In this document: one piece after another, positions 9,705 through 56,781 of the stretch
How the letters are laid out: each line of letters opens with the position of its first letter
Position numbering within the stretch: position 1 is the first letter of the stretch
DNA from: Roseateles sp.
GTDB lineage: Bacteria > Pseudomonadota > Gammaproteobacteria > Burkholderiales > Burkholderiaceae_C
Direction of reading: 5' to 3'
Assembly: GCF_047654785.1 (NCBI RefSeq)
Contig: NZ_JASGKQ010000002.1
Span: 577,268 to 641,267, forward strand
Length of the DNA stretch: 64,000 nucleotides
Position numbers and translations under genes: made by a program
Notes under the pieces: generated by a model
Told to the model about the DNA's origin: nothing
What the model saw: only the letters and a program-made list of their open reading frames with translations
The model's database searches: none

Positions 9705-10905
9705 CGCGCGCCGCGGCCGGGAAGCCGGCGGCCATGCCGTCCACCAGCAGCCGCAGCCCGGTCGAGCCGCCGGTGAAGTACAGCGCGTCCACCTGATCGG
9801 CCGTCAGCCCCGCCAGCGCCACCGTCTCGTGCGCGGTGGCGATGATGCGGTCCAGGTCGGCGCGCAGCGCGGCCACGGCGGTCCGCTCGCCCAGCGGCAG
9901 CAGCAGGCCGGGCTCCACGTGGCCCAGGTCCACCGTGGTGTCGGCGCCGCCGGAGATGGCGATCTTGGCGCCCTCGGCGCGCGCGGCCAGGTCGTGGCCC
10001 AGGCGCTCGTCCAGCACCGTCATCAGCCGCGCGTGCTGGCGCGCGTCGCCGAACCAGCCCTTCATGCCGCGCCACTCGGCCACGCGCAGCGGCGCGTAGC
10101 AGGTGTTGATGAGGTGCCAGGTGGCCAGGTCGAAGTAGAGGCCGCTGGGCACCTCGCGCCCGCTCGGGCCGAGGGCGCGGTAGCCGAAGGCCTGCAGCAT
10201 GCCGGCGAGTTCGATGTGGCGGTCGAAGTCGGTGCCGGCGACGTGCAGGCCGTGGCTGGCCAGGATGTCGTCGCGCCGCGCCAGCCGGCGCATGCGCTCC
10301 GGGCCGACGCGGACGACGGAGAAGTCGCTGGTGCCGCCGCCGATGTCGGCCACCAGCACCAACTGCTCGCGGCTGGCCTGCTGCTCGAAGTCGAACGCCG
10401 CGGCGATCGGTTCGTACTGGAAATGCACCTCGTCGAAGCCGGCCGCCCGGGCGCAGGCCGCCAGCTGCGCCTGCGCGGCGGCGTCGCGCGCGGGGTCGCC
10501 GTCGACGAAGCTCACCGGCCGGCCCAGCACCGCGCGCGTGGGCTCGCCGGCCAGGCGGCGCAAGCGCTTCAGGTAGCCGGCGACGATGTCCGCGTAGCGC
10601 GCGCCGCGGCCGCCGCCGACGTCGGTGGTCTGGTCGATCAGCGCCGAGCCGAGGATGCTCTTCATGGAGCGCATCAGCCGGCCGTCGTGGCCGTCCACGT
10701 AGGCGGCCACGGCGGCGCGGCCGAAGGCGCGCGGCGGGCCGTCGGCGTCGTGCGGCCCTTCCGCGAAGTAGAAGACGGCCGTGGGCATGGTGCGCTGGCC
10801 GGGCTCCAGCTCGATGAGGCGCATCGCACCGTCCGGCCCCGGCACGGCCACGGCGGAGTTGGAGGTGCCGAAATCGATGGCGCAGAAACCGGGCGGATTG
10901 CTCAT
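9628..10905 (-). CDS. Hsp70-family ATPase, YegD-like
   Basis: Actin-fold phosphate motifs AIDFGTSNSAVA and VADIGGGTSDFSV are present. Size is about 425 aa. Confidence 0.85.
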   Translation of the reverse strand: MSNPPGFCAIDFGTSNSAVAVPGPDGAMRLIELEPGQRTMPTAVFYFAEGPHDADGPPRAFGRAAVAAYVDGHDGRLMRSMKSILGSALIDQTTDVGGGRGARYADIVAGYLKRLRRLAGEPTRAVLGRPVSFVDGDPARDAAAQAQLAACARAAGFDEVHFQYEPIAAAFDFEQQASREQLVLVADIGGGTSDFSVVRVGPERMRRLARRDDILASHGLHVAGTDFDRHIELAGMLQAFGYRALGPSGREVPSGLYFDLATWHLINTCYAPLRVAEWRGMKGWFGDARQHARLMTVLDERLGHDLAARAEGAKIAISGGADTTVDLGHVEPGLLLPLGERTAVAALRADLDRIIATAHETVALAGLTADQVDALYFTGGSTGLRLLVDGMAAGFPAAARVSGDRFASVAAGLGLHAQRLFAADR

Positions 10906-42990: not shown

Positions 42991-44074
42991 GGCGATGTGG
43001 GCGCGTGGAGGACTGGCGGCGATTCTAGGAATGCTCGCCGCCTGCTCTTCGCCGCCGTTGCTGCCGCCGGCTGCGCCCGGGCCCGCCAAGCCCATGCCCG
43101 CGGCGGGCCGCTGGGCCGCCGCCGACTGGCGGGACCTGCCCGGCTGGGGCGGCGACGACCTGCTCGCCGCCTGGCCCGCGCTGCTGGCCGGCTGCCAGCG
43201 CCCGGCGCCCGGCTGGGCCGAGTTCTGCGCCCGCGCCGCGCTGCAGCCGCCCGGCGACCCGCTGGAGGCCGCCGCGCTGCTGATGAAGCACCTGCGCCCC
43301 TGGCGGCTGGCCGCCGGCGACGGCGAGGCCACGGGCCTGCTGACCGGCTACTTCGAGCCCCAGCTCGCCGCGCGCCGCACGCGCCAGGGCGCCTTCCAGT
43401 GGCCGCTGCATGCGCTGCCGGCCGACCCCCGGCTCCGCCGCACGCCGCGCCGCGACATGGCCGCCGACCCGCGCTTCGCGGCGCTGGAGCTGGCCTACCT
43501 GGACGACCCGTTCGGCCTGCTGCAGCTACAGATCCAGGGCTCGGGCCGGCTCGTCGTGCGCGACGCCGCGGGCGCCGAGCGCATCAGCCGCGTCGCCTGG
43601 GCGGGCCACAACGACCAGCCCTTCGCCTCCGTCGCCCAGGCCCTGCTGGCCCGCGGCGAGGTGCGCGACGCCACGCCGCAGACCCTGAGCGACTGGGCGC
43701 GCCGCAACCCGGCCAGGGTGGGCGAGGCGCTGGCCGTGAACCCGCGCGTCGTCTACTTCCGCGAGGAGCCGCTGCCGGACCCGGCGCAAGGCCCGCGCGG
43801 CGCGCAGGGCGTGCCGCTGACGCCGGGCCGCTCCGTCGCCATCGACCGCAGCCACATCGCGCTCGGCACGCCGCTGTGGCTGGACAGCACCGAGCCGCTG
43901 TCCACCACGCCGCTGCGCCGCCTCGTGTTCGCGCAGGACACCGGCAGCGCCATCCAGGGCGCCGTGCGCGCCGACCTGTTCTGGGGCTGGGGCGACGAGG
44001 CCGCGCTGCGCGCCAGCCGCACCCGGCAGCCGCTGCGGCTGTGGGCGCTGCTGCCCGCCGGCCTCATTCCGTGA
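42989..44074 (+). CDS. mltA: Murein transglycosylase A (lipoprotein)
   Basis: Lipobox GMLAAC. MltA pattern GYFEP..., and 3D-domain DTGSAIQGAVRADLFWG. The start could be 42989, 42995 or 43031. Confidence 0.85.
   Translation: MAMWARGGLAAILGMLAACSSPPLLPPAAPGPAKPMPAAGRWAAADWRDLPGWGGDDLLAAWPALLAGCQRPAPGWAEFCARAALQPPGDPLEAAALLMKHLRPWRLAAGDGEATGLLTGYFEPQLAARRTRQGAFQWPLHALPADPRLRRTPRRDMAADPRFAALELAYLDDPFGLLQLQIQGSGRLVVRDAAGAERISRVAWAGHNDQPFASVAQALLARGEVRDATPQTLSDWARRNPARVGEALAVNPRVVYFREEPLPDPAQGPRGAQGVPLTPGRSVAIDRSHIALGTPLWLDSTEPLSTTPLRRLVFAQDTGSAIQGAVRADLFWGWGDEAALRASRTRQPLRLWALLPAGLIP
43015..43031 (-). promoter_or_regulatory. TTCCTAGAATCGCCGCC motif 24 nt upstream of the 36-aa ORF (inside the mltA 5' coding region)
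   Basis: Variant of the 17-mer, oriented toward the minus-strand small ORF. Confidence 0.3.
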
Positions 44075-44345
44075 CCTTGACGCCCTTCCAGAACGCATAG
44101 CGGCCCTTGATCTCGGCGGCGGCGGGCAGCGGGTCGGCGTAGGTCCAGGCCGCGTCCGGGTTCATCTCGCCGTCCACCAGCAGGCTCAGGTACTTCGCCT
44201 CGCCCTTCCACGCGCAGCGGCTGACGTGGTTGCTGAAGGTCGTGTACTGCCGGTTCAGCGACTCGGCGGGGAAGTAATGGTTGCCTTCGACGACCACCGT
44301 GTCGTCGCTCTCGGCGATGGTCACGCCGTTCCAGACTGCCTTCAT
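44064..44345 (-). CDS. DUF427 domain protein
   Basis: MKAVWNGVTIAESDDTVVVEGNHYFP...CAWKGEAKY pattern. 93 aa. Confidence 0.8.
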   Translation of the reverse strand: MKAVWNGVTIAESDDTVVVEGNHYFPAESLNRQYTTFSNHVSRCAWKGEAKYLSLLVDGEMNPDAAWTYADPLPAAAEIKGRYAFWKGVKVTE

Positions 44346-44369
44346 CGCGCTCTCCTCGAAAATGGATCC

Positions 44370-44606
44370 ATGAAACGCTACCACTCCCACCTCGGCCGCG
44401 ACATCGTCGTCACCGGCGGCAGCGCCCGCGACCTGGCGCCGGGCCAGTTCGGCGTGCTCGCCGTCGACGGCGGCGCGGGCGGCTGGTCGGTCGTCCACAA
44501 GGGGCCGGACGGCGGGGTCGTGGAGCTGAACAACGAGATGCACTTCGAGGCGCCGGAGGCCGCGCTGGCGTTCGTGAAGGAGTTGATCGGGATGATGGCG
44601 CCCTAA
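44370..44606 (+). CDS. Hypothetical 78-aa protein
   Basis: High third-position GC. No recognisable domain. Weak SD. Confidence 0.45.
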   Translation: MKRYHSHLGRDIVVTGGSARDLAPGQFGVLAVDGGAGGWSVVHKGPDGGVVELNNEMHFEAPEAALAFVKELIGMMAP

Positions 44607-44616
44607 ACTCGCCGCC

Positions 44617-44907
44617 ATGCGCCCCTCCGCCGCCCTCGCTCGCCAGCGTGCCGCCGTGCGCGAGGCGGCGGGGCGCTTCCGCGCCGCCAACCCGCGCGTG
44701 TTCGGCTCGGTGCTGCGCGGCACCGACACGGAGGGCAGCGACCTGGACCTGCTGGTGGATGCCCTGCCCGACGCGACCCTGTTCGACCTGGGCGGCCTGC
44801 AGCAGACGCTGGAAGACCTGCTCGGCGTGCGCGTCGATCTGGTGACGCCGGGGGACCTGCCGCAGCGCGTGCGCGCCATCGTGCTCGCGGAAGCGCAGCC
44901 AGTATGA
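44617..44907 (+). CDS. MNT-type nucleotidyltransferase antitoxin (type VII TA)
   Basis: FGSVLRGTDTEGSDLDLLV minimal NTase motif. 96 aa. Overlaps the downstream gene by 4 nt. Confidence 0.85.
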   Translation: MRPSAALARQRAAVREAAGRFRAANPRVFGSVLRGTDTEGSDLDLLVDALPDATLFDLGGLQQTLEDLLGVRVDLVTPGDLPQRVRAIVLAEAQPV

Positions 44908-45254
44908 AATCGGCCCGCCTGCCGGACTATTTGCAGCACATCCGGCAGGCGGCGCAGCGGGCGCGCGACTTCGTGGCCGGCATGACGCGTGAGGGCTTCG
45001 AGCGCGACCTGCGGACGCAACAGGCGGTCGAGATGAACCTCATCGTGATGGGCGAGGCCGCGTCCCGCGTGCTGGAGCATCACGCCGACTTCGCGCAGCG
45101 CCATCCGCAACTGCCCTGGCGCGAGATGCGCGGTATGCGCAACCGCATGGCCCACGGCTACTTCGACATCAATCTGGACGTGGTCTGGAACACCGTGCAG
45201 GCGGCGCTGCCGGCCTTGCTGGCGCAACTGGATGCCCTGCCCGCCGATGTCTGA
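44904..45254 (+). CDS. HepT-like (DUF86) ribonuclease toxin
   Basis: RX4HXY motif RNRMAHGY near the C-terminus. 116 aa. Confidence 0.85.
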   Translation: MKSARLPDYLQHIRQAAQRARDFVAGMTREGFERDLRTQQAVEMNLIVMGEAASRVLEHHADFAQRHPQLPWREMRGMRNRMAHGYFDINLDVVWNTVQAALPALLAQLDALPADV

Positions 45255-45906
45255 CGGCGCCTGCGGCGACGCGGGCGGCCTGACCCTCTACGGCGCCGCC
45301 GCGTCCGGCTCGGTGGCGGTGGAGGCCGCGCTGACGCTGCTGGGCTTGCCCTATGAACTCGTCGAGGGTGCGACCTGGGCCGACGCGGCGGCGCGCGAGC
45401 GCGTCGCGCCGGCCAATGCGATGCGCCAGGTGCCGACGCTGGTGTGGCCCGATGGCGAGGTCATGACCGAGAGCGCGGCCATCCTGATCCACCTCGCCGA
45501 CCAGCATCCCGAGGCGCGGCTGGCGCCCGCCGTGGATGCGCCGCTGCGCCGGTCCTTCCTGCGCTGGATGCTCCACGTGTCGTCGGCCATCTACGCGCTG
45601 CACTGGATCAAGCCCGACGTGGCGCGCATCGGCGCGCCCGAGAGCCTGCGGGGCGCGGTGGTGGACGCCGTGCACGAACGCATCGCCTTCTGCTGGGCCC
45701 ACATGGACGCCCAGCTCGACCCCGGCCGCCACCTGCTGGGCGACGAGCTGACGGTGCTGGACCTCTACGTCGCCGTCGTCTCCCGCTTCGGGCCGTGGCG
45801 CGAACGCTTCTACGAGGCCGCGCCGCGCATGACGCCGGCCGTGCGGCGGGTGGACGACGACCCGCGGCTGGCGGCGTTGTGGCGGGCGCGCTTCCCCGCT
45901 GGCTGA
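45247..45906 (+). CDS. Glutathione S-transferase family protein
   Basis: Start at MSDGAC. Thioredoxin-like N-domain (QVPTLVWPDGEVMTESAAILIHL) plus a helical C-domain. Confidence 0.75.
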   Translation: MSDGACGDAGGLTLYGAAASGSVAVEAALTLLGLPYELVEGATWADAAARERVAPANAMRQVPTLVWPDGEVMTESAAILIHLADQHPEARLAPAVDAPLRRSFLRWMLHVSSAIYALHWIKPDVARIGAPESLRGAVVDAVHERIAFCWAHMDAQLDPGRHLLGDELTVLDLYVAVVSRFGPWRERFYEAAPRMTPAVRRVDDDPRLAALWRARFPAG

Positions 45907-45942
45907 CGGCGCCGCCCGCGCCCGGGCCGGGTTTCGGCCGGG

Positions 45943-46008
45943 TTGACAAGCCCGCCCATTCGCCTAGGATTGATCCGAATAATTGAACAATGTTCCACAT
46001 ATTGGAAC
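45943..46008 (+). promoter_or_regulatory. Promoter (TTGACA-N16-TAGGAT) plus two 17-bp palindromic operator boxes
   Basis: TTGACA at 45943-45948. TAGGAT at 45965-45970. Box A GATCCGAATAATTGAAC at 45972-45988. Box B GTTCCACATATTGGAAC at 45992-46008. The same module occurs inverted at 54528-54594. Confidence 0.65.
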
Positions 46009-46022
46009 ATCCAAGGATTCCC

Positions 46023-47663
46023 GTGGATCAACCCAAGCCTTCGGATTCGGAGCCCGGCGCCAGGCCTCCCGGCGGCCGGCACCCGCGCGCGCTGGCGCCG
46101 GCCAACCTGCTGCTGACGCTGGGCCTGAGCGTGTTCGGCGCCATCGTCGGCATGCAGATCATGGCGGCCGTGGGCATGACGCCGGCCACCTCCATCATCG
46201 GCGCGGTGGCGGCCATGGCGCTGGCGCGCATCCCGCTCGCGCAGTTTGCGGGCTTCCGCTCGCCGCATGCGCAGAACCTGGCGCAGACCAGCATCTCCTC
46301 GGCCACCTTCGGTGCGGCCAACAGCCTGTTCCTGCCCATCGGCATTCCCTACCTGTTCGGCCTGCCGGACCTGGTGCTGCCGATGCTGGTGGGCGTGAGC
46401 CTGGCGATGCTGCTGGACGCGTGGATGCTCTACCGCCTCTTCGACACCCCGGTGTTCCCGGCGCGCAACCCGTGGCCGCTGGGCATCGCCACCGCCGAGG
46501 CCATCAAGGCGGGGGACGCCGGCGGCCGGCAGGCGCGGCTGCTGCTCGGCGGCCTGGCCGTGGGCGCGGCCGGCGCGGCGCTGGCGGTCCCGATGTCGGC
46601 GCTGGGCATCGCGCTGCTGGGCGGGCTGGCGGCGATGGTCGCCTTCGCGGTCGGGCTGCTGGTGCGGGCCTATTCACAGGCCTGGTTCCAGGTGGACATC
46701 GCGGCGCTGTACATCCCGCACGGCGTGATGATCGGCGCCGGCCTGATGGCGCTGGTGCAGGTTTCTCGGCTGGTGCTGAGTCCATCCCGCGCCCCGCAGC
46801 CGGCCGGCCCCGCGTCCGCGCGCACGGCCGGCGCCCCGGGGCAGCGCGCCGGCCGGACGCTGCGCCGGGGCGCGCTCGCCTACGGCGGCCTGACGCTGCT
46901 GCTGGCGCTGGGCACCGGCCTCCACCAGGACATGGCGCCGGGCATGCTGGCGCTGTTCGTCGTCTATGCCGCGTTCTCGGCCTTCGTGCACGAGATCATC
47001 GTCGGCATCTCGGCCATGCACGCGGGCTGGTTCCCGGCGTTCGCGGTGGCGCTGATCACGCTGCTGCTCGGCATCCTGCTGGGCCTGCCCGCGTCGGCGC
47101 TGGTGGTGCTGGCGGGCTTCACGGCCGCCACCGGCCCGGCCTTCGCCGACATGGGCTACGACCTGAAGACCGGCTACCTGCTGCGCGGCGAGGGGGCCGA
47201 CCCGGCCTTCGAACGCGACGGCCGCGCCCAGCAGGCCATCGCGGCGCTGCTGGGCTTCGGCGTGGCCATCGCCGTGGTGGCGCTGTCCTATCCGGCCTTG
47301 TTCGCCGCGCATCAGTTCGCGCCGATCAACGCGGCCTACGTGGCGGCCATCAAGGCCGGCATTTCCTCCGAGACGGCGCGCACGCTGGCGCTGTGGGCCG
47401 TGCCCGGCGCGCTGCTGCAGGCGCTGGGCGGCTCGCGCCGCCAGCTGGGCGTGCTGCTGGCCACCGGGCTGCTGATCGGCGGCGTCTGGGCCGGCTGGAT
47501 GGTGGCCCTGGGCCTGGTCGCGCGGCTGGCGGCCCGGGCCTGGCTGGGCGCCGGGGCCAGCGCGCGCATCGAGGTGTTCGCCGGCGGCGTCATCGCCGGC
47601 GACGCGCTCTACAGCTTCTTCCACGGCTCCAGCATGAGCATCCACCAGCGGGGTTCCAAGTGA
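46023..47663 (+). CDS. OPT-superfamily (oligopeptide transporter-like) membrane protein
   Basis: Many TM helices. NLAQTSISSATFGAANSLFLPIG resembles bacterial OPT proteins. I prefer GTG 46023 (AAGGA 5 nt upstream), because the listed ATG 45990 lies inside operator box B. Confidence 0.7.
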   Translation: MDQPKPSDSEPGARPPGGRHPRALAPANLLLTLGLSVFGAIVGMQIMAAVGMTPATSIIGAVAAMALARIPLAQFAGFRSPHAQNLAQTSISSATFGAANSLFLPIGIPYLFGLPDLVLPMLVGVSLAMLLDAWMLYRLFDTPVFPARNPWPLGIATAEAIKAGDAGGRQARLLLGGLAVGAAGAALAVPMSALGIALLGGLAAMVAFAVGLLVRAYSQAWFQVDIAALYIPHGVMIGAGLMALVQVSRLVLSPSRAPQPAGPASARTAGAPGQRAGRTLRRGALAYGGLTLLLALGTGLHQDMAPGMLALFVVYAAFSAFVHEIIVGISAMHAGWFPAFAVALITLLLGILLGLPASALVVLAGFTAATGPAFADMGYDLKTGYLLRGEGADPAFERDGRAQQAIAALLGFGVAIAVVALSYPALFAAHQFAPINAAYVAAIKAGISSETARTLALWAVPGALLQALGGSRRQLGVLLATGLLIGGVWAGWMVALGLVARLAARAWLGAGASARIEVFAGGVIAGDALYSFFHGSSMSIHQRGSK

Positions 47664-48715
47664 AACGCAAACTGACGACTGACGACGCGATCGCCGCGGT
47701 GTGGGGCGGGGCCATCCTGGGCGGCGGCGGCGGCGGCTTCGTGGCGCCGGGCGAGCAGGCCGCGCGGCTGGCCATGGAGATGGGCACGCCCGAGCTGTGG
47801 AGCCTGGACGAGCTGCCGCCCGACGCGCCGACGGCCACCGTCGCGCTGGTCGGGGCGCCCGGCGCGCGCAACCCGCTGTTGGTGCCGGCCTACCTGCTGC
47901 GCAGCCTGGAACTGCTGCAGCAGCAGCTCCCGGCGGCGCTGGCGGGCTTCTACGCCTGCGAGAACGGCGCCGAGGCGACGCTGAACGGCTGGATGCAGTC
48001 GGCCGCCACCGGGCGGCCGGTGATCGACCTGGCCTGCAACTGCCGCGCCCACCCGTCCAGCGTGATGGGCGCGATGGGGCTGCACCGCGAGGCCGGCTAC
48101 GTGGGCCTGCACGCCTATGCCGGCGGGCGCCCGGCGCAGTATGTCGAGGGCGTCGTGCGCGGCAGCCTGGACGGCATTTCCAGCATCGTGCGCCATGCGT
48201 CGGTGCAGGCCGGCGGCGCGGTGGCCGTGGCGCGCAATCCGGTGCCCCTGGATTACGCCGCGCGGCACGGGTCGCCCGGCGCGGTCAGCCTGGCCATCGA
48301 CCTCGGCCGGGCCTTCCTGGACGGCGGCCTCGAGGCCGCGATGCGGATGCTGGGCGCCAGCGTGGTGGCCGAGGGGACGGTGCGGGACTGCCGCTGCGAG
48401 CAGCGGGCCGGCCTGGACCATGGCCGGGTGCTGCTGGACGACGCGGCGCGGACCGAGCTGCTGCTGATCAACGAGTACATGCTGCTGGAGCAGCGCGGCG
48501 AGCGCGTGGCCGCCTTCCCGGACCTGCTGACCACCTTCGGCGCCGACGGCCTGCCGGTGGCCTCGGCCGACGTGAAGGTGGGCGACCGCCTGCGCGTGCT
48601 GCGCGCGCCGGCCGCGCGGCTGCCGCTGGCCGCGACGATGTTCATGCCCGAGCTGTACGCGCATCTCGAAGCCATGCTGGGCAAGCCGTTCGCGCCGCAG
48701 CCCGCGAGCGCCTGA
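47660..48715 (+). CDS. DUF917 family protein, copy 1
   Basis: GTG start overlaps the transporter stop (GTGA). AVWGGAILGGGGGGF and RAHPSSVMGAMGLHRE signatures. Paralog of 53450-54508. Confidence 0.85.
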   Translation: MKRKLTTDDAIAAVWGGAILGGGGGGFVAPGEQAARLAMEMGTPELWSLDELPPDAPTATVALVGAPGARNPLLVPAYLLRSLELLQQQLPAALAGFYACENGAEATLNGWMQSAATGRPVIDLACNCRAHPSSVMGAMGLHREAGYVGLHAYAGGRPAQYVEGVVRGSLDGISSIVRHASVQAGGAVAVARNPVPLDYAARHGSPGAVSLAIDLGRAFLDGGLEAAMRMLGASVVAEGTVRDCRCEQRAGLDHGRVLLDDAARTELLLINEYMLLEQRGERVAAFPDLLTTFGADGLPVASADVKVGDRLRVLRAPAARLPLAATMFMPELYAHLEAMLGKPFAPQPASA

Positions 48716-48776
48716 CGCCGCCGCAGGGCGGGACTCCTATGATCCCAGCCCCGCAAAAGCCCGAAGGAGCCGCCTC

Positions 48777-49541
48777 TTGAGCACCCTTGCGAACGCCATG
48801 GACGTGCTGAAGCTGATCGTGCGTCTGCGCCGCGACATCACGGTGACCGATCTGGTGACCGCGCTCGGCTACCCGAAGAGCTCGGCATCGCGCACGCTGA
48901 GCCAGATGGCCGCGCATGGTTTCCTGGAGCGCGACGCGGTGACCAAGGCCTACCGGCCCGGCCTGCTGGTGGTGGAGGCGGGCCATCAGTTCCGCGTCGG
49001 CGGCAGCGTCCTGCCGCTGCTCGAAGAGGCGCTGGAGCAGTTGGTGGGGGCCACCGGCTTCACCGGCTACCTCGGCGTGCTGCGGGGGGCCGAGATCCTG
49101 GTCGTGCAGATGCGCGCGGGCGCCCAGCCGCTGCAGGTCTACACGCCGCCGGGCACCAGCGGCCCGGCCGCCTTCACGTCCATGGGCCGGGCGCTGCTCG
49201 CGCGCCTGAGCGACGCGGAGGTGCTGGCGCTGGTCGGCCGCAAGTTCGACCGCCCGCCGGGCAGCGCGCCGAAGACGCCGCGGGAACTGCTCGACCGCCT
49301 GGCGCAGACGCGCCGCGACGGCTGGAACGAGTCGCGCGGCGAGTCGCTGGCCGAGGTCTACGGCATCGCGTCGTCGGTGCGGGACCCCAGCACCGGCGAG
49401 GCCTACGGCATCGGCCTGGCCATCCCGCCGGGGGAGGGCATCGACGCGCTGTTCGAGCGCTGCGTCGTGCGGGTGCGCGATGCCGCCAGCGGGGTCGGTC
49501 GCCGCATCGGCGATCCGTACTGGCTGCAGATGGGGGGCTGA
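48777..49541 (+). CDS. IclR-family transcriptional regulator
   Basis: GAAGGAG sits 7 nt before TTG 48777 (alternative ATG at 48798). wHTH is ITVTDLVTALGYPKSSASRTLSQM. IclR effector domain present. Confidence 0.9.
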   Translation: MSTLANAMDVLKLIVRLRRDITVTDLVTALGYPKSSASRTLSQMAAHGFLERDAVTKAYRPGLLVVEAGHQFRVGGSVLPLLEEALEQLVGATGFTGYLGVLRGAEILVVQMRAGAQPLQVYTPPGTSGPAAFTSMGRALLARLSDAEVLALVGRKFDRPPGSAPKTPRELLDRLAQTRRDGWNESRGESLAEVYGIASSVRDPSTGEAYGIGLAIPPGEGIDALFERCVVRVRDAASGVGRRIGDPYWLQMGG

Positions 49542-49565
49542 GAACAGGTTCCAAGGGATGGCGGA

Positions 49566-51269
49566 TCAGTCCAGCACGACCTCGGTGCGCACCCGGCCGG
49601 CGCGCGCCGCGTGGGCGCTGAGCGCCAGGCGCGTGCCCCGGGGTGCGCGCACGATCCACTCGCCGACGGCGCGGTCGGCGGTCACCTCGCGCACGGGGGC
49701 CGCGGCATGCTGGGTCTGCCTGGGGGCGTGGCCGTCCAGCTGCGGCCCCTCCATGCGCGGCTTGCCGCTGACCAGGCCGACGGCCGGGTCGTCCGCCGGC
49801 AGGTGGATTTGGAAGACCACGCCCCGCACGATCTTGCGCTCCAGCGCGCGCTGCATCACGTAGGTCGGCAGGTAGCCGCCGTTGGCCACCGCCAGCCGGA
49901 CGCGCCAGGTGTCCGCACCCAGCGCCTGCACCTCGGCGCGCAGCAGCTCCAGCCGGGGCAGGGACAGCGCGACCTGGTTCAGCCAGGCGGGAAAGCGCGC
50001 CACCTCGGGCTCGCGCAGGTGCGGCGGCGGGTTGCGCCGGAAGTTCATGCGGTCCCAGCCGCCGATCTCCACCGCGCCGAGCTGGGGATGCTGGAAGGGC
50101 CGCCAGTCCACGTGGGCCTGGCCGCCGCACTGCTCGTCGCTCCAGCGGAGCAGCTTGAGGTCGTCTTCCACCGGGTGGTCGCGGAACCAGTCCATCCACT
50201 TGTACCCCTGGATGCCGGCCTCGCGGTTGGGCGACCACAGCTCGACGACCCAGCACAGCGCGCCGAGGTGCTCGTAGAGCCAGTCCTGGCCGCCGCTGAG
50301 CGTTTCCTTCGGGTGGTACTTGAAGTCGTGCCAGATGCTCAGCGCCGGGTAGCCGGTGGCCTGGCTGCCGAGTTCCGAGAAGCGCTGGTAGCGCCACAGG
50401 TCCTCGGCGGCCATGTCCTCGTCCTTGCCGCCGCTGAGCGGCCGCAGGATCACGCCGCTGTGCGTGTGGAAGCTGATGGCGGCGCCGATGTTGGGGTGGG
50501 CGATGACGAAGTCCACCATCGCGCGCACCTCGGGCTCGCTGGTCGGGTACGGGCCGGCGCCGGGCTGCTGGTAGTCCTGCCGCCAGCCGGCGGGGAAGTT
50601 GCGGTTGAGGTCCAGGCCTTCCTTGTCCTTGTTGACGGTGAGGGTCAGGCCGTCGTAGTCCTTGACGAAGCCCTCGGGCATGAGCCGGTAGTACTCGCCG
50701 CCGAATTCGCCAGGCTGGCGCGCCACCAGCAGGCGCGGCTCGGCCGGGTGCTTCCTGTAGCCGCCGTGGGGGTCGGGGACGCGCATGTGCAGGATGCGGC
50801 CGTCGCCGTCCACGTCCTCGACGCTGAGGCCGTCGACCGGATCCTCGTCGAAGGGGTAGGCGCGCGTGCTCGACCGGATGTGGCGCGGCCGGTCGGCCAG
50901 CGCCAGCTCCGCGCCGTCGGGGTTGAGGCGCGGCACCAGGTAGACGGCGCGCGTGTCCAGCAGCTGCGTGACCTGCGGGTCGCTGCCGTGGCCGCTGACC
51001 AGCCGGTGCAGGTAGTACAGGCAGGCCGTCGAGGCGGTCAGCTCGGCGGCGTGGATGTTGCCGTCCACCCAGAAGGCGGGCTTGTCCTCGTCCGCGCCGG
51101 TGGCGGTGTTGGTCAGCACGACGACCCAGATGTCGCGGCCTTCGTGGCTGCGCCCCATCGAACGGACGCTGACCAGCCCCGGCCGCGCCTCGGCATAGGC
51201 GAACAGCAGGGCGGTCAGCGGCTCGTGGCGCAGGAACTCGTCGAAGCGGGGGGTGGGCAGCGGGGGCAT
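49566..51269 (-). CDS. M14-family zinc carboxypeptidase, no signal peptide
   Basis: SHEGRDIWVVVLTN...FWVDGNIHAAELTAS (HxxE zinc motif). 567 aa. Confidence 0.85.
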   Translation of the reverse strand: MPPLPTPRFDEFLRHEPLTALLFAYAEARPGLVSVRSMGRSHEGRDIWVVVLTNTATGADEDKPAFWVDGNIHAAELTASTACLYYLHRLVSGHGSDPQVTQLLDTRAVYLVPRLNPDGAELALADRPRHIRSSTRAYPFDEDPVDGLSVEDVDGDGRILHMRVPDPHGGYRKHPAEPRLLVARQPGEFGGEYYRLMPEGFVKDYDGLTLTVNKDKEGLDLNRNFPAGWRQDYQQPGAGPYPTSEPEVRAMVDFVIAHPNIGAAISFHTHSGVILRPLSGGKDEDMAAEDLWRYQRFSELGSQATGYPALSIWHDFKYHPKETLSGGQDWLYEHLGALCWVVELWSPNREAGIQGYKWMDWFRDHPVEDDLKLLRWSDEQCGGQAHVDWRPFQHPQLGAVEIGGWDRMNFRRNPPPHLREPEVARFPAWLNQVALSLPRLELLRAEVQALGADTWRVRLAVANGGYLPTYVMQRALERKIVRGVVFQIHLPADDPAVGLVSGKPRMEGPQLDGHAPRQTQHAAAPVREVTADRAVGEWIVRAPRGTRLALSAHAARAGRVRTEVVLD

Positions 51270-51284
51270 GGCGTCATCCGGCCT

Positions 51285-53432
51285 TCACATCTTGACACTG
51301 AGTTCGATGCCCACCACCCGCGGCGTGCCCCGGGAGCCGATCGCGTCGATGGGCGCGCCCCAGCCGTTGTAGGTCTTGCCGTTGACGTCGGCGTAGTAGA
51401 AGCGGTTGCCGAGGTTGCGGCCGTAGAGCGTGGCGGACCAGCGGTCCCGGGCGTCGCGCACGCCCAGCCGTGCGTTCAGCAGCGTCACGCCGTCGGAGAC
51501 GAGCACGTTGTCCGGGTGCCAGTACTTGCGGCTGCGCACCTCGACGTCCAGGCGCGCCTGCCCCGCCAGCCCCTGGCCCAGCGCGGTGCTGTACTGTGCG
51601 CCGAAGGTGGCCTTCCACGGCGAGTTCTTGGGCGTGTGGTTGCCCACGGTGGCGGGTTCCGCCGCGTTGGCCTTGATGCGGCTGCCGGCCAGGCCCAGGC
51701 CGCCGTCGAACTCCAGCCCCTGCGCGGCCAGGTAGCGGAAGTCCAGGTCCAGGCCCTTGATCGTCACCTTGTCGATGTTGCCGATGCGGCCGGACAACAC
51801 CGGGCCGGGCAGCACCTTGATGTAGAAGTACTGGAAGTCGGTGGAGTGCGAGTAGAAAGCCGCGGCATTCAGGCTCAGCCGCCCGTCCAGGAAGCTGCCC
51901 TTGTAGCCCGCTTCGAGGTTGCGCAGGTTCTCGGCCTTGAAGACCGGGTTGTCCGCCGCCGTCGTGTTGAAGCCGCCCGAGCGGAAGCCGGTGCTGTAGG
52001 TGGCGTAGCCCAGGGCCTCGGCGCCGAGCTTGCGGGTCAGCGTCAGCTTGGGCTGCCAGGCGTCGAAGCCGGCGTCGACCGTGGTGTTGCCGTTCAACAG
52101 GTCGATGCGCTGGCGGGCATCGTGGTCGTAGCGCAGCCCGGCGGCCAGCTTGGTGAGCGGGTCGAGGTCGTACTCGATCTGGCCGAACACGGCCGAAGCC
52201 TTGTTCTTGAAGTCGTTGCGGCGCGTGGTGGGCACGCTCTCGTACTGCCAGGGCAGGCCGGTCGTGTCGGCGTAGGACTTCTCGGTCCAGTCCAGGTCCT
52301 TGGCCAGGTAGTACAGGCCGGCGATCCAGCGCAGCGGCCGGTCGCCGGGCGAGGTCAGGCGGATTTCCTGGCTGGTCATGCGGATGCGCCGGTCCTTGCC
52401 CTGGCCGCGGCTGAGGGGGCCGGCGATGCCGCCCAGCGGGTCGTCGGGGTTGGAGAAGTCGCCGTCGCTGGCGAATTTCTCGGTGAGCCGGGTGTGGTTG
52501 GTGATCGCGGTCAGCGTGCCCAGCCGGGTCTCCACATCGGCCTTGAAGGTGAACTCGTCCGTGCCGCCGACGGACTGGCCCAGCACGTTCGAGGTCGGCG
52601 CGTAGCGCGCGTTCAGGTTGCCGTCGCGGATCAGGTTGTCCCAACTGGCGCCGGCCTGGAAGCGGTTGGTGCTGGCGCGGAAGTCCAGCTGCACGTCTTC
52701 GGACGCCAGCACCATGAGCTTGGCGCGCAATGTGTTGTCGTGGCCGATGGGGTCGGCCTTGGCATTGCGGTAGCTGTTGGTGACGAGGCCGTGGGAGGTC
52801 TTGCTCTGGCCGACGATGCGGAACAGCACCTTGTCCTTCACCAGCGCGCCGCTGACGCCGCCGTTCAGGTCCACCGTGTTGCCGGTGCTGTAGTCCAGCT
52901 TGGCGAAGCCCTGCAGCTCGTTGGCGGGCTGCTTGGTGTCGATCACGATCGCGCCGCCGACGGCGTTGCGCCCGTACAGCGAGCCCTGCGGGCCCTTCAG
53001 CACCTCGATGCGGGCCACGTCGACCAGGTTCATCTTGAGCTGCTTCTGGTCGTTCTGCGGCACGCCGTCCACCACCACGGCCACCGGCGAATCGGCGTTG
53101 TTGATCTCCGAGACGCCGCGGATCACGACGAAGGAGTTGCCGTAGGTGAAGGACTGGTCGAAGGACACGTTGGGCGTCAGGTCCATGAAGTCCTGCGTGC
53201 TCTTGATGCCGGCGTCCTCGATCTGCCGGGCGCTGAAGGCCTTCACCGCGACCGGCACGCTCTGCAGCATCTCCTTGCGGCCCTGCGAGGTCACGACGAC
53301 CTGCTCCAGCTTGTTGCTGCGGGCCTCGGTGGCCGGGGGCGGCGCGCCGGCGGCGGTGTCCTGGGCGCTGGCGCCCGCGCTCATCAGCGCGATCGCGCTG
53401 GCCAGGCAATGGCGTCGAAAACTCGTGCTCAT
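51285..53432 (-). CDS. TonB-dependent outer-membrane receptor
   Basis: Start at MSTSFRRHCLASAIALMSAGASAQ (signal peptide). TonB box-like LEQVVVTS. Plug motif IEVLKGPQGSLYGRNAVGGAI. Beta-barrel repeats. Confidence 0.9.
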   Translation of the reverse strand: MSTSFRRHCLASAIALMSAGASAQDTAAGAPPPATEARSNKLEQVVVTSQGRKEMLQSVPVAVKAFSARQIEDAGIKSTQDFMDLTPNVSFDQSFTYGNSFVVIRGVSEINNADSPVAVVVDGVPQNDQKQLKMNLVDVARIEVLKGPQGSLYGRNAVGGAIVIDTKQPANELQGFAKLDYSTGNTVDLNGGVSGALVKDKVLFRIVGQSKTSHGLVTNSYRNAKADPIGHDNTLRAKLMVLASEDVQLDFRASTNRFQAGASWDNLIRDGNLNARYAPTSNVLGQSVGGTDEFTFKADVETRLGTLTAITNHTRLTEKFASDGDFSNPDDPLGGIAGPLSRGQGKDRRIRMTSQEIRLTSPGDRPLRWIAGLYYLAKDLDWTEKSYADTTGLPWQYESVPTTRRNDFKNKASAVFGQIEYDLDPLTKLAAGLRYDHDARQRIDLLNGNTTVDAGFDAWQPKLTLTRKLGAEALGYATYSTGFRSGGFNTTAADNPVFKAENLRNLEAGYKGSFLDGRLSLNAAAFYSHSTDFQYFYIKVLPGPVLSGRIGNIDKVTIKGLDLDFRYLAAQGLEFDGGLGLAGSRIKANAAEPATVGNHTPKNSPWKATFGAQYSTALGQGLAGQARLDVEVRSRKYWHPDNVLVSDGVTLLNARLGVRDARDRWSATLYGRNLGNRFYYADVNGKTYNGWGAPIDAIGSRGTPRVVGIELSVKM

Positions 53433-53449
53433 GATGACTCCATGTCGCT

Positions 53450-54508
53450 TCAGGGATGGATGGATGGGGCCGGGGCGAAGCGCTGGCCCAGCGTGGCTTC
53501 GAGCGGTGCGTACAGCTCCGCCATGAACATCGTGGCCGCCAGCGGCAGGCGGGCGGCCGGCGCATGCAGCACGCGCAGGCGGTCGCCCACGCGCACGTCG
53601 GCGGACACGACGGGCCGCCCCTCGGCATCGAAAGTGGTCAGCAGGTCCGGGAAGGCGGCCATGCGCTCGCCGTGCTGCTCCAGCAGCATGTATTCGTTGA
53701 TCAGCGGCAGCCGCGTCCGGGCGTCGTCGTCGAGCACGACGACGCCCACGTCCAGCCCCGCCACCTGCTCGCAGCGGTAGCTGGCCACGGTGCCCTCGGC
53801 GCGGACGCTGCCGCCGAGGAAGCGCGCCGCGGCGTCGAGGCCGCCGTCGAGGTAGGCCCGGCCCAGGTCGATGGCGAAGCTGATCGCACCGGGCGCGCCA
53901 TGCCGCGCGGCGTGGCCGATGGTGACCGGGTTGCGGGCCACCGCGACCGCGCCGCCGGCCTGCACCGACGCATGCCGCGCGATGCTGGCCACGCCGTCCA
54001 TCGCGCCGCGCGCGACGCCCTCCAGGTAGCGCTGTGGCGCGCCGCCGGCGAAGGCCTGCAGCGCGACGTAGCCGGACTCCCGGTGCAGGCCCATCGCGCC
54101 CATCACGCTGGACGGATGGGCGCGGCCGTTGCACGCGAAATCCAGCATCGGGAGGCCCAGCGCCGCGGCCTGGCCCCAGCCGTTGACCGTGGTCTCGGCA
54201 CCGTTCTCGTTGGTGTGCAGCGCGGCGAGCCGGCCGGGCAGCTGCCGCTGCAGCAGCTCGATGGCCCGCATCCGGTGCTCCGGCGGCACCTTGGGGTCCG
54301 GCGACCCCGGCGCGCCGACCAGGGCGACCGTGGCGGTCAGCGCGTCGGCGTCGAACTCGTCCACGCTCCACAACGCCACGCTGCCGGCCTGCAGCGCCTG
54401 CCGCGCCGCGAGTTCCCCGGCCGCGACGAAGCCGCCGCCGCCGCCGCCCAGAATGGCGCCGCCCCACACGGCGGCCTGCACATCGTCTTCCGTCAGCCTG
54501 CGCTTCAT
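53450..54508 (-). CDS. DUF917 family protein, copy 2
   Basis: Start at MKRRLTEDD, by alignment with copy 1 (VKRKLTTDD). The listed upstream Met at 54553 lies inside operator box A. Confidence 0.85.
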   Translation of the reverse strand: MKRRLTEDDVQAAVWGGAILGGGGGGFVAAGELAARQALQAGSVALWSVDEFDADALTATVALVGAPGSPDPKVPPEHRMRAIELLQRQLPGRLAALHTNENGAETTVNGWGQAAALGLPMLDFACNGRAHPSSVMGAMGLHRESGYVALQAFAGGAPQRYLEGVARGAMDGVASIARHASVQAGGAVAVARNPVTIGHAARHGAPGAISFAIDLGRAYLDGGLDAAARFLGGSVRAEGTVASYRCEQVAGLDVGVVVLDDDARTRLPLINEYMLLEQHGERMAAFPDLLTTFDAEGRPVVSADVRVGDRLRVLHAPAARLPLAATMFMAELYAPLEATLGQRFAPAPSIHP

Positions 54509-54527
54509 CGCATCCACCCGTTCAAGA

Positions 54528-54594
54528 GTTCCAAATATTGGAACAAAGTCCAATAATTTGGATCTGATGCTAGGACGGTGCTCCGGCCTGTCAA
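54528..54594 (-). promoter_or_regulatory. Promoter (TTGACA-N16-TAGCAT) plus two 17-bp palindromic operator boxes
   Basis: Read on the minus strand: TTGACA is the reverse complement of 54589-54594, and TAGCAT of 54567-54572. Box A GATCCAAATTATTGGAC is at 54548-54564. Box B GTTCCAATATTTGGAAC is at 54528-54544. Confidence 0.65.
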
Positions 54595-54713
54595 GCCTGG
54601 GTTTCTGCGGAGGCGGGCAGGCGGCGGCCGGGCGGTGGCGGCGCCTTCGATCTGGAGGGGGCGTCAGGCCGGCGTCGCGCGGGCCGGGTGCGGGCGGCGG
54701 GGCGGCCCGGCGC

Positions 54714-56414
54714 TCACACCTGCCCGCCCGCCTTCGCGCCCTTGCCCTGCAGCACCGGCGCGTCCGGCATGCCCAGCAGGTCGGCCGCCAGGGCCTCGGC
54801 CACTTCGATGCCGTCGACGCCGGCCGACATGATCCCGCCCGCGTAGCCGGCGCCCTCGCCGGCCGGGAACAGCCCGCGCACGTTGACGCTCTGGTAGTCG
54901 CGCCCGCGGTTGATGCGCAGCGGGCTGGACGTGCGCGTCTCCACGCCGGTCAGCACCGCGTCCGGGCGGTCGAAGCCGCGGATCTGGCGGGCGAAGGCGG
55001 GCAGGGCCTCGCGGATCGCGTCCAGGCAGTAGGCCGGCAGCGAGCCGCGGCCTTTTTGCTGCAGGTCGGTCAGCGTGACGCCGGGCTTGTAGCTCGGCGC
55101 CACGTCGCCGAACTCGCGGCTGACCTGGCGCTTGACGAAGTCGCCCACCAGCGAACCCGGCGCCAGGTAGCCGCCGCCGCCCAGCTCGTAGGCGCGGCTT
55201 TCCCAGAGGCGCTGGAAGGCCATGCCGTCGAGAGGATTCACGGGGCTGCCGTCGCGCTTGCCATCCTGCCGGTAGTCCTCGGGCGTCAGGCCGACGACGA
55301 TGCCGGCGTTGGCGTTGCGCTCGGCGCGCGAGTACTGGCTCATGCCGTTGGTGACGACGCGGTCGGGCTCGCTGGTCGCGGCGACGACGGTGCCGCCGGG
55401 GCACATGCAGAAGCTGTAGACCGAGCGGCCGTTCTTCGCGTGGTGGACGAGCTTGTAGTCGGCCGCGCCGAGGATGGGGTGGCCGGCGCTGGGGCCGAAG
55501 CGCGCGGCGTCGATCAGGCTCTGCGGGTGCTCGATGCGGTAGCCGATCGAGAAGGGCTTGGCTTCCATCTGCACGCCGCGCGCGTGCAGCATCGTGAACG
55601 TGTCGCGCGCACTGTGGCCGAGCGCGATGACGACGTGGGTCGTGCCGATCTGCTCGCCGGACGCCAGCTGCACGCCGCGCACCGCGCCGTCCTCGATCAG
55701 CAGGTCGGTCATCTTCTGCTGGAAGCGGATCTCGCCGCCCAGCGCCTCGATCTCGGCGCGCATCTTGATGATCATGCTGACGAGGCGGAAGGTGCCGATG
55801 TGCGGCTTGCTGACGAACAGGATCTCTTCCGGCGCGCCGGCCTTGACGAACTCGGCCAGCACCTTGCGCGTCAGGTGGCGCGGGTCGGAGATCTGGCTGT
55901 AGAGCTTGCCGTCCGAGAAGGTGCCGGCGCCGCCCTCGCCGAACTGCACGTTCGATTCGGGGTCCAGCTTCCGCTCGCGCCACAGGCCCCAGGTGTCCTG
56001 CGTGCGCTCGCGCACGGCCTTGCCGCGTTCCAGCACGATGGGCCGCAGGCCCATCTGCGCCAGGATCAGCGCGGCGAACAGGCCGCACGGCCCGAAGCCG
56101 ACGACGACCGGGCGTGGCCCGGCGTACTCGCCGACCTGGGCCAGGAAGCGGTAGCCGGTGTCGGGCGTGGGCCGGACCTGGTGGTCGCCGGCGAAGCGGG
56201 CCAGCACCGCGGCCTCGTCCACCCCGGCGGCCAGCGTGCAGTCCAGCGTGTAGACGAGCTGGATGTCGCTGCGCTTGCGCGCGTCGTAGCCGCGGCGGGC
56301 GACGTGGAGGCCGGCCAGTTCGGCGTCGGCCAGCTTCAGCCGGGCCAGCGCGGCCGGGCGCAGCGCGTCCTCGGCGTGGTTCAGCGGCAGGCGGAGTTCG
56401 TTGATGCGGATCAT
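54714..56414 (-). CDS. FAD-dependent oxidoreductase (COG2509-like)
   Basis: Start at MIRINELRLPL. Dinucleotide-binding VVVGFGPCGLFAAL. About 566 aa. Confidence 0.8.
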   Translation of the reverse strand: MIRINELRLPLNHAEDALRPAALARLKLADAELAGLHVARRGYDARKRSDIQLVYTLDCTLAAGVDEAAVLARFAGDHQVRPTPDTGYRFLAQVGEYAGPRPVVVGFGPCGLFAALILAQMGLRPIVLERGKAVRERTQDTWGLWRERKLDPESNVQFGEGGAGTFSDGKLYSQISDPRHLTRKVLAEFVKAGAPEEILFVSKPHIGTFRLVSMIIKMRAEIEALGGEIRFQQKMTDLLIEDGAVRGVQLASGEQIGTTHVVIALGHSARDTFTMLHARGVQMEAKPFSIGYRIEHPQSLIDAARFGPSAGHPILGAADYKLVHHAKNGRSVYSFCMCPGGTVVAATSEPDRVVTNGMSQYSRAERNANAGIVVGLTPEDYRQDGKRDGSPVNPLDGMAFQRLWESRAYELGGGGYLAPGSLVGDFVKRQVSREFGDVAPSYKPGVTLTDLQQKGRGSLPAYCLDAIREALPAFARQIRGFDRPDAVLTGVETRTSSPLRINRGRDYQSVNVRGLFPAGEGAGYAGGIMSAGVDGIEVAEALAADLLGMPDAPVLQGKGAKAGGQV

Positions 56415-56467
56415 GGTCAGCGGATGCGGGCGTGGGGGCCTCATCCTCTTTGGTCAGTGTCGAGCCG

Positions 56468-56497
56468 ACAAAAACAAACAGGCCCCTCGGGGCCTGT
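56468..56497 (-). terminator. Rho-independent terminator after the 54-aa gene
   Basis: On the minus strand, the CAGGCCCC/GGGGCCTG hairpin is followed by TTTGTTTTTG. Confidence 0.6.
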
Positions 56498-56530
56498 GTG
56501 CGGTGGACCTCCAGGCGGTCGGCCCGGCGA

Positions 56531-56695
56531 TCAGCCCGAGTGCGGGCGCTTGCCCGGGTTCTTCTTGGAGCGGGTGTGCGAGCCGCGCTCCAGGCTGCGC
56601 AGCTGGCCCTTGCCGGCGGTGAAGGTCACGCCCTTGGGGGCGACGGGGCGGGGGGTGGCGCGGCGGTCCGCTTCGGTGATGATCTTGTTGCCCAT
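56531..56695 (-). CDS. Small basic protein (54 aa), not in the supplied ORF track
   Basis: Hand translation gives MGNKIITEADRRATPRPVAPKGVTFTAGKGQLRSLERGSHTRSKKNPGKRPHSG. GGAG lies 6 nt before the ATG. A promoter-like element lies upstream and a terminator downstream. Confidence 0.6.
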   Translation of the reverse strand: MGNKIITEADRRATPRPVAPKGVTFTAGKGQLRSLERGSHTRSKKNPGKRPHSG

Positions 56696-56745
56696 GAGTG
56701 GCTCCAGTGAAACAAGCCCACAGCAGGGGCGTTACGGCGACGAAA

Positions 56746-56781
56746 GGCGCGGATTTTAGCCTGCGGCCCGCCAGGCCTCAA
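56746..56781 (-). promoter_or_regulatory. Promoter-like TTGAGG-N17-TAAAAT followed by CCGCGCC
   Basis: TAAAAT is the reverse complement of 56753-56758 and contains the TAA stop of the upstream gene. TTGAGG is the reverse complement of 56776-56781. The -10-like hexamer starts about 60 nt upstream of the 54-aa ORF start (motif ends 50 nt upstream). Confidence 0.45.

Follow-up and report, generated by a model that had tools for sequence, protein, structure and literature searches.

Results

Two convergent operons begin with the same module

The window analysed here, a 64-kb stretch of DNA from Roseateles sp., contains two convergent operons, each of which begins with a copy of the same short module: a sigma-70-like promoter followed by two palindromic boxes. 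Operon 1 (promoter P1) comprises genes for an OPT-family transporter, a DUF917 protein and an IclR-family regulator (OPT-DUF917a-IclR), and operon 2 (promoter P2) comprises genes for a second DUF917 protein, a TonB-dependent outer-membrane receptor (TBDR) and an M14 carboxypeptidase (DUF917b-TBDR-M14). The IclR gene lies between both promoter copies. The gene map, obtained from Pfam scans and reading-frame checks, is as follows.

46023..47663, + strand: OPT-family transporter gene, first in operon 1, single copy (Pfam PF03169, E 1.3e-18)
47660..48715, + strand: DUF917 / S-Me-THD-like paralog a, second in operon 1 (Pfam PF06032, PF20906)
48777..49541, + strand: IclR-family regulator, third in operon 1, proposed binder of the four boxes (Pfam HTH_IclR, IclR_C)
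49566..51269, - strand: M14 zinc carboxypeptidase, last in operon 2 (Pfam PF00246, E 7.6e-45)
51285..53402, - strand: TonB-dependent outer-membrane receptor, second in operon 2 (Pfam Plug, TonB_dep_Rec_b-barrel; start ATG 53402)
53450..54508, - strand: DUF917 / S-Me-THD-like paralog b, first in operon 2 (Pfam; inverted repeat I1, 47661-48697 / 53471-54507)

Gaps within the operons are 15-61 nt, and the stop codons of IclR and M14 are 24 nt apart. The elements of the two modules are given below, together with their scores against a weight matrix that is described in the following section.

45943..45970, + strand: promoter P1; -35 TTGACA (45943-45948), 16-nt spacer, -10 TAGGAT (45965-45970)
45972..45988, + strand: box A of P1, GATCCGAATAATTGAAC; weaker, promoter-proximal palindrome over the predicted transcription start; 15.9 bits
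45992..46008, + strand: box B of P1, GTTCCACATATTGGAAC; strong palindrome with exact GTTCCA-N5-TGGAAC; 26.1 bits
54567..54594, - strand: promoter P2; -35 TTGACA (54594-54589), 16-nt spacer, -10 TAGCAT (54572-54567)
54548..54564, - strand: box A of P2, GATCCAAATTATTGGAC (- strand); 20 nt from box B; 17.7 bits
54528..54544, - strand: box B of P2, GTTCCAAATATTGGAAC (+ strand reading); exact motif; 32.4 bits, the top site of the window

This layout had been described in an initial annotation of the sequence, which was right to the base for TTGACA, 16 nt and TAG(G/C)AT at both sites. Its count of 14 identical positions out of 17 between the box A copies, the shared 6-nt arms of box B, the centre-to-centre distance of 20 nt in both copies and the placement of both boxes, at both sites, between the -10 element and the start codon are all borne out. 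The further statement that the box B copies differ at one central position is true when the second copy is read on the opposite strand, which is legitimate for a palindrome, but not in the direction of transcription, in which copy 2 reads GTTCCAATATTTGGAAC.

The -10 element and box A are separated by 1 nt (T) at P1 and by 2 nt (CA) at P2, and the two boxes by 3 nt in each case (AAT and TTT, respectively), with box centres at 45980/46000 (P1) and 54556/54536 (P2). Downstream of the boxes, P1 is followed by a Shine-Dalgarno sequence, AAGGA (46013-46017), and a GTG start codon at 46023, and P2 by an ATG start codon at 54508. When the two modules were aligned with each other (alignment A1), identity was concentrated in the -35 and -10 elements and in both boxes.

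The modules exceed chance expectation

The exact sequence GTTCCA-N5-TGGAAC occurs at two places in the window, both of them these box B sites. With up to 2 mismatches allowed, four sites were found in the 64 kb as against 0.8 expected, a number reached in none of 100 shuffles. For an independent measure we built a symmetric 17-bp weight matrix from the box B sites of other genomes only. The four window boxes scored 32.4, 26.1, 17.7 and 15.9 bits, and the next best of the ~64,000 positions 1.9 bits. Since one symmetric matrix scores both kinds of box, box A can be regarded as a weaker form of the box B palindrome.

The promoters are similarly exceptional: there were two sigma-70-like matches in the interval 45000-55500, versus 0.3 expected, and these were P1 and P2, each matching at 10/12. 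Both combine -35 and -10 hexamers with a spacer, 16 nt in each case, that lies within the 16-18 nt of sigma-70 promoters. As in a tandem operator, each window module has two inverted repeats of equal length, an arrangement that is the same in related loci, and the spacer between the repeats is short and fixed, at 3 nt in both window copies.

The module accompanies orthologous IclR genes in other genomes

Related loci (labelled L001 and upwards) were gathered from a one-genome-per-species scan with the IclR protein (23 loci) and from homolog lookups (12 loci), and their promoter regions were compared by tblastn gene placement and direct reading. The full module was present upstream of OPT in Roseateles aquatilis (L001), Pelomonas sp. 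KK5 (L025), a Burkholderiales metagenome-assembled genome (L026-28) and the closely related L024, in the form TTGAC(A/C), 16-17 nt, TA(G/T/C)CAT, box A, 3 nt, box B, ribosome-binding site and start codon. About 20 Variovorax-type loci also carry it upstream of OPT, with the IclR gene divergent from OPT-DUF917. Klebsiella aerogenes (L029), Marinobacterium (L031), Stenotrophomonas mori (L034) and Streptomyces (L032) likewise have both boxes before OPT. Where aroM is transcribed separately, as in several Variovorax-type loci, Streptomyces and Stenotrophomonas, it has a box pair of its own. In an alignment of 12 orthologous modules (A2), TTGACA, TA..A, the G..C of box A and the GTTC and TGGAAC of box B were invariant, with the promoter spacer and flanks free to vary.

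The spacing of the boxes is also conserved. A scan of 643 kb (the window plus 32 loci) gave 41 sites of at least 18 bits, and at 41/41 of these strong sites the best second site within 13-32 nt was exactly 20 nt away, box B being strong and box A weak in every locus. Overall, the module spans five bacterial orders and extends into Actinobacteria, always together with an orthologous IclR gene, and it was seen in all examined loci that have both an IclR ortholog and OPT.

Two Variovorax loci have an IclR ortholog (at 10001-10765 in each) with no OPT or DUF917 gene within 10 kb. One of them, L014, keeps the full module (box B at 9878) before an unidentified gene; the other, L008, has no box site.

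The local IclR protein is the likely binder of the boxes

The 254-aa window IclR protein has an N-terminal winged helix-turn-helix (HTH) of the IclR type (PF09339 HTH_IclR, E 9.3e-12, residues 3-53) and a C-terminal effector-binding domain (PF01614 IclR_C, E 7.1e-18, residues 83-238). Its matches in the PDB are BlcR, PcaR, TtgV and the IclR protein of T. maritima. The named equivalogs BhcR, IclR, AllR, KdgR and PcaR/PcaU could be ruled out, as NCBIfam scores fell far under the cut-offs: the best model, BhcR, gave 85 bits against a cut-off of 350, and scores over the IclR, AllR, KdgR and BhcR models ranged over 28-85 bits, where 275-406 would be needed.

Across the whole protein, orthologous regulators share 54-85% identity, and they adjoin OPT/DUF917, L008 and L014 excepted. 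From Betaproteobacteria to Actinobacteria, residues 1-62 (the winged HTH, with the recognition helix PKSSASRTLSxMA) hardly vary (alignment A3), which matches the conservation of the putative half-sites. In a Rhizobium DUF917 locus with a LysR regulator, no OPT and no IclR, no position within 17 kb scored more than 7.1 bits. A different picture emerged for Burkholderia multivorans (L033), in which the cassette IclR (11491-12261) is just 46% identical and has the helix SRTLLIMA versus SRTLSQMA. The region upstream of OPT in this locus (L033:6212-6346) has no GTTCCA-N5-TGGAAC and instead contains a 5-N5-5 palindrome, TCCCG-TATAT-CGGGA, overlapping CGGGAT-CAT-ATCCCG, so that regulator and operator may have co-varied in this single case.

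The proposal, made in the initial annotation, that the boxes of both arms are bound by the IclR protein is thus strongly supported, and we regard the four boxes as the putative operator of this locally encoded protein. The evidence is comparative throughout: co-travel of boxes and gene, the 20-nt spacing, the nearly invariant HTH and the absence of the motif from a DUF917 locus that is without this IclR gene. The dimer-of-dimers arrangement that formed part of the same proposal is something we infer.

A putative tandem operator over the predicted start of transcription

Taken as a whole, these observations are best explained, and we think with good reason, if each site is a strong sigma-70 promoter with a predicted tandem operator for the IclR protein of 48777-49541. 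At P1, transcription is predicted to start near 45977, which would place box A at about -5 to +12, box B at about +16 to +32 and the start codon at about +47; at P2 the predicted start is near 54560 and the ATG at about +53. RNA polymerase in an open complex covers DNA to about +20, and for this reason a protein on box A would be expected to clash with it. The initial annotation spoke of a repressor roadblock. Both boxes do lie downstream of the -10 element, but the term is imprecise: because box A begins 1-2 nt past the -10 element and extends over the predicted +1, occlusion of polymerase binding, of the open complex or of escape would be expected, not a block to elongation.

We envisage a model whereby an IclR dimer on the high-affinity box B would serve as an anchor and a second dimer would bind the weaker box A cooperatively; the pattern of a strong box B and a weak box A fits such an anchor dimer plus a cooperative partner. 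Given the 20-nt spacing of the centres, both dimers should lie on one face of the helix and be able to form a dimer of dimers. Once bound, they would prevent either the formation of the open complex or the escape of RNA polymerase from it, until a small-molecule inducer, probably a substrate or product of the pathway, freed IclR from the DNA. P1 would then transcribe OPT-DUF917a-IclR and P2 DUF917b-TBDR-M14, and since IclR is encoded third in operon 1, it would regulate itself negatively at P1. The steps of binding, stoichiometry, repression and induction are those that we infer from the sequence. They are in keeping with the family, the members of which bind as dimers or tetramers, with repressors occluding RNA polymerase (bioRxiv 10.1101/2023.07.27.550818).

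Other explanations of the boxes were considered. The palindromes might act in the mRNA, box B forming a hairpin of 6 bp with a 5-nt loop in the 5' leader and controlling translation or stability. Indeed, the boxes lie between the predicted +1 and the start codon, and symmetric changes preserve pairing (e.g. GTTCTA...TAGAAC in L017 and L018). However, such changes are equally expected of a palindrome that binds a dimer, and what is conserved across phyla is base identity and not pairing alone (GTTC and TGGAAC are invariant in A2). The AT-rich centre is kept in composition, as is typical of a protein site, and in L016 and L019 the site persists with the non-complementary arms GTTCGA...TGGAAC. 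The motif also follows the presence and the HTH sequence of the IclR gene, and an Rfam search of 44000-57000 returned no match at E up to 1. We therefore find a role in the mRNA very improbable. Binding by some other regulator, for example an iron or nitrogen global regulator of a TonB-receptor or peptide-uptake regulon, is improbable too. Such a regulator would suit the weak siderophore-receptor profile matches of the operon 2 TBDR, and the AT-richness of the boxes, which many global-regulator sites share. Nevertheless, the motif occurs only at OPT/aroM promoters beside an orthologous IclR gene, in Gram-negative and Gram-positive hosts with differing global regulators; most motif-bearing loci are without a TonB receptor; and the motif changes where the recognition helix of IclR changes. 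To our knowledge, GTTCCA-N5-TGGAAC also resembles neither the Fur box nor the CRP/FNR consensus, which counts against a global regulator.

The inverted orientation of the two 66-nt modules, and the discrete gene set that they flank, might alternatively suggest the terminal inverted repeats of a mobile element carrying the 8.6-kb segment. This we practically discount. In all relatives the module is single, lies upstream of OPT and has promoter geometry, with the start codon 15-20 nt downstream, and these single-copy orthologous promoters effectively refute the idea. In addition, neither the segment that the modules enclose nor the adjoining DNA contains a transposase or integrase, and the two copies are just 73% identical, with identity limited to the promoter and operator elements.

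Some observations do weigh against an operator of the local IclR protein that is bound by two dimers. The matrix used for the 643-kb scan contained sites of the scanned loci, which makes the list of strong sites partly circular; the 20-nt spacing result and the matrix test on the window are free of that circularity. Box A is weak in L011, L014, L019 and L032 (partner scores of -1.4 to 4 bits), and binding of two dimers may for this reason not be universal. Finally, the association of boxes and IclR is correlative, and it is conceivable, if improbable, that another factor accompanying the cassette is what binds.

Origin of the two arms

Comparison of the two arms by blastn (word size 7) revealed just two homologous blocks. 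Block 1 (47661-48697 versus 54507-53471; 1042 nt, 78%) consists of DUF917 coding sequence, beginning with codon 1, and block 2 (45940-46008 versus 54597-54528; 71 nt, 73%) is the promoter-operator module. Between the blocks, arm 1 has 1.65 kb that include the complete OPT gene, and arm 2 has 20 nt; DUF917 comes second in the P1 operon and first in the P2 operon. OPT, IclR, TBDR and M14 are single copy. The collinear, contiguous homology, including non-coding flanks, that an inverted duplication requires is thus not seen between the arms, and because the non-duplicated OPT gene separates P1 from DUF917a, a simple copying of module and gene together does not describe the arms. The initial annotation had taken a module duplicated with its gene as direct evidence of an inverted duplication. 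A duplication of DUF917 is upheld by the phylogeny described below, but the claim was overstated, as the OPT gene adjacent to P1 has no second copy and the arms share two non-collinear blocks only. The promoter copies would fit a duplication, but sequences so short and so constrained cannot prove one.

The two DUF917 proteins are 71% identical in amino acid sequence. In a neighbour-joining tree with 300 bootstraps, DUF917 a grouped with the L024 ortholog and then with b, the (a, L024, b) clade receiving 99% bootstrap support and R. aquatilis falling outside. DUF917 a (with L024) and b are therefore closest relatives, as a segmental duplication demands, and the clade implies that the duplication took place in this lineage, before its split from L024. 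In L024, with an IclR 85% identical to that of the window, IclR and M14 already converge; the 4.5-kb contig of L024 ends inside M14. By comparison, Pelomonas KK5 has a single operon, P-OPT-DUF917-TBDR-IclR-M14, of which the window arms are complementary subsets, with gene order kept and arranged tail to tail. Box A carries a derived GATCC in P1, P2 and L024, and GAACA, GTTCA or GTCCA in the outgroups. At the protein level, the window OPT is 66-87% identical to those of L001 and L024-L026, the TBDR 73% identical to those of L001 and L025, and the M14 protein 76% identical to that encoded after IclR in Pelomonas KK5.

The most likely history that we can propose has two steps, inverted duplication of the entire operon and then reciprocal loss of genes. 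An ancestral single operon, P-OPT-DUF917-TBDR-IclR-M14, would have been duplicated whole, inverted and tail to tail; TBDR and M14 would then have been lost from arm 1 and OPT and IclR from arm 2, so that the promoter-operator and DUF917 stayed double and both promoters remained under the single surviving repressor.

It is rather unlikely, though to be taken seriously, that P2 was not copied along with DUF917b, and that arm 2 instead came by horizontal transfer from a related cluster or recruited its promoter-operator separately. In agreement with a separate origin, the two homologous blocks are non-collinear (1.65 kb versus 20 nt), the modules are unalignable in their flanks and match at 8/16 positions of the promoter spacer, and DUF917b is as near to the R. 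aquatilis ortholog (71-72%) as to a (71%). Since the module is so conserved among relatives, its similarity cannot tell which copy gave rise to which. Against a separate origin stand the 99% support for the (a, L024, b) clade, the derived GATCC common to both window modules and L024, and the TBDR and M14 proteins, which at 73-76% identity to those of the nearest relatives are in line with the other genes. Furthermore, the gene content of the arms complements the KK5 operon exactly and in order, just as duplication and reciprocal loss predict. Duplication with reciprocal loss is itself not free of difficulties. It needs four separate deletions, of which blastn (word size 7) found no relics, either of OPT in arm 2 or of TBDR and M14 in arm 1. 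In the protein collection searched there was no second genome with arm 2, and no DUF917b homolog closer than 71%. Gene conversion between a and b could also mimic a recent common origin.

The two paralogs have not diverged equally. Paralog a is more diverged from all orthologs than b (59-66% versus 62-72% identity) and is altered in otherwise conserved motifs (e.g. ACNCRAHP versus ACNGRAHP), which points to relaxed or altered function after the duplication.

Neighbouring sequences

In operon 1, the stop codon of OPT (TGA) and the start codon of DUF917a (GTG) overlap as GTGA (47660-47663), where relatives such as Pelomonas KK5 have a gap of 16-80 nt; the overlap suggests translational coupling. 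The gap between IclR and M14 (49542-49565) contains a lone GTTCCA half-site (GTTCCAAGGGATGGCGG) and is without a terminator-like hairpin. Across 45000-55500, just one terminator-like match was found, within DUF917b and on the opposite strand. tblastn for aroM gave nothing below E 3.7 in the 64-kb window, from which we conclude that the locus of this organism is without aroM.

Outside the two operons, one gene adjoins P1:

45232-45906, + strand: GST-like gene, upstream of P1

Upstream of P2, the region 54714-58867 (- strand) encodes a 576-aa FAD-dependent protein (PF21688) and a HAMP-GGDEF-EAL signalling protein; there is no box near either gene, and both appear to lie outside the regulon. Beside the R. 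aquatilis cassette we also noted a 1258-aa ribonucleotide reductase large subunit with an intein splicing domain (L001:10906-14682, - strand).

Discussion

Likely role of the regulon

The core conserved across loci consists of IclR, OPT and DUF917, with 50-65% protein identity to the window over Beta- and Gammaproteobacteria and Actinobacteria (L001, L025, L029 and L031-L034). Frequent partners are AroM, which is racemase-like, and a peptidase that depends on the host: M14 in the window and KK5, M17 in Marinobacterium and M20 in Streptomyces. Stenotrophomonas has a penicillin-amidase-like protein and Burkholderia a DUF2817 protein, which we take to be M14-like. A TonB receptor or porin is added in some Gram-negative cassettes. 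DUF917 itself was rejected as a thiohydantoin desulfurase (204-242 bits against NCBIfam cut-offs of 440-450) and is a family relative only. In the only paper that we found naming these families together, they are enriched beside cyclodipeptide oxidases, and DUF917 and AroM are called uncharacterised (PMC10557607).

As to function, we can offer no more than a guess, if a reasonable one: that these genes serve to take up and degrade a cyclic-dipeptide-like or hydantoin-like compound. Together, the two operons would switch on the outer- and inner-membrane uptake and the processing of one peptide-like or hydantoin-like nutrient. More tentatively, it is possible, if on balance doubtful, that the GTTCCA-N5-TGGAAC operator and its IclR protein define an undescribed cross-phylum regulon (OPT, a DUF917 ring-opening or desulfurase-like enzyme, a racemase-like AroM, an M14/M17/M20 peptidase and, in some cases, an outer-membrane receptor) that responds to a diketopiperazine or hydantoin-like inducer, the operon having been split here by inverted duplication and reciprocal loss with both halves under one repressor.

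Tandem palindromic operators of IclR proteins that cover the start of a catabolic or uptake operon are well known as a kind, and these results leave the current understanding of IclR repressors unchallenged. This particular regulator, motif and regulon were not found in the literature searched: there was no paper on DUF917 together with IclR, none on thiohydantoin desulfurase, and for GTTCCA with IclR only titles that, judged as titles, looked unrelated. An orphan, widely distributed IclR regulator gains a precise predicted operator and a small regulon (OPT, DUF917, AroM, peptidases and TonB receptor). The regulator-operator pair could serve for substrate discovery by inducer screening and then as a biosensor, and the two-promoter layout would offer a clear example of an operon splitting in two within one regulon.

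Comparison with known systems

The history proposed for the two arms applies the scheme of duplication, degeneration and complementation to an operon, in that the window arms are complementary subsets of the KK5 operon with the regulatory region kept in both. It departs from that scheme in that no intermediates and no relics of the deleted genes were seen, and we accordingly treat it here as a model.

The operators of E. coli IclR and AllR are palindromes with half-sites of the TGGAA/TTCCA type and an AT-rich centre. The half-sites run in the opposite direction, however: TGGAAA...TTTCCA in E. coli IclR/AllR and GTTCCA...TGGAAC in the window. Repressors of the E. coli IclR/AllR type tetramerise (bioRxiv 10.1101/2023.07.27.550818), and the window IclR would do likewise in the dimer-of-dimers arrangement proposed above.

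TtgV, the IclR-family regulator of ttgGHI in Pseudomonas putida, is only weakly similar in sequence to the window protein (2xrn, E 4e-6) and controls an efflux pump. Its operator overlaps the -10/-35 region and is not made up of two clean 17-bp palindromes. In mechanism it is close to what we propose: TtgV is a dimer in solution and a tetramer on its operator, where it blocks polymerase access until released by an effector (bioRxiv 10.1101/2023.07.27.550818).

By sequence, the closest solved structure to the window IclR is that of BlcR (AttJ) from Agrobacterium tumefaciens (3mq0, E 2.7e-13). BlcR represses blcABC as a tetramer bound upstream of this catabolic operon, and ligand releases it (PMC6402643). 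The two proteins are distant (53 bits) and are not orthologs, and their half-sites differ. The ligand of BlcR is gamma-butyrolactone/GHB, presumably unlike that of the window protein, and the genes under BlcR form a lactonase pathway and not one of OPT, DUF917 and peptidase; furthermore, the window operator stands at the two promoters of convergent operons, unlike that of blcABC. Like the window modules in layout, the BlcR operator is reportedly made up of two inverted repeats with a 3-nt spacer, each repeat bound by one dimer.

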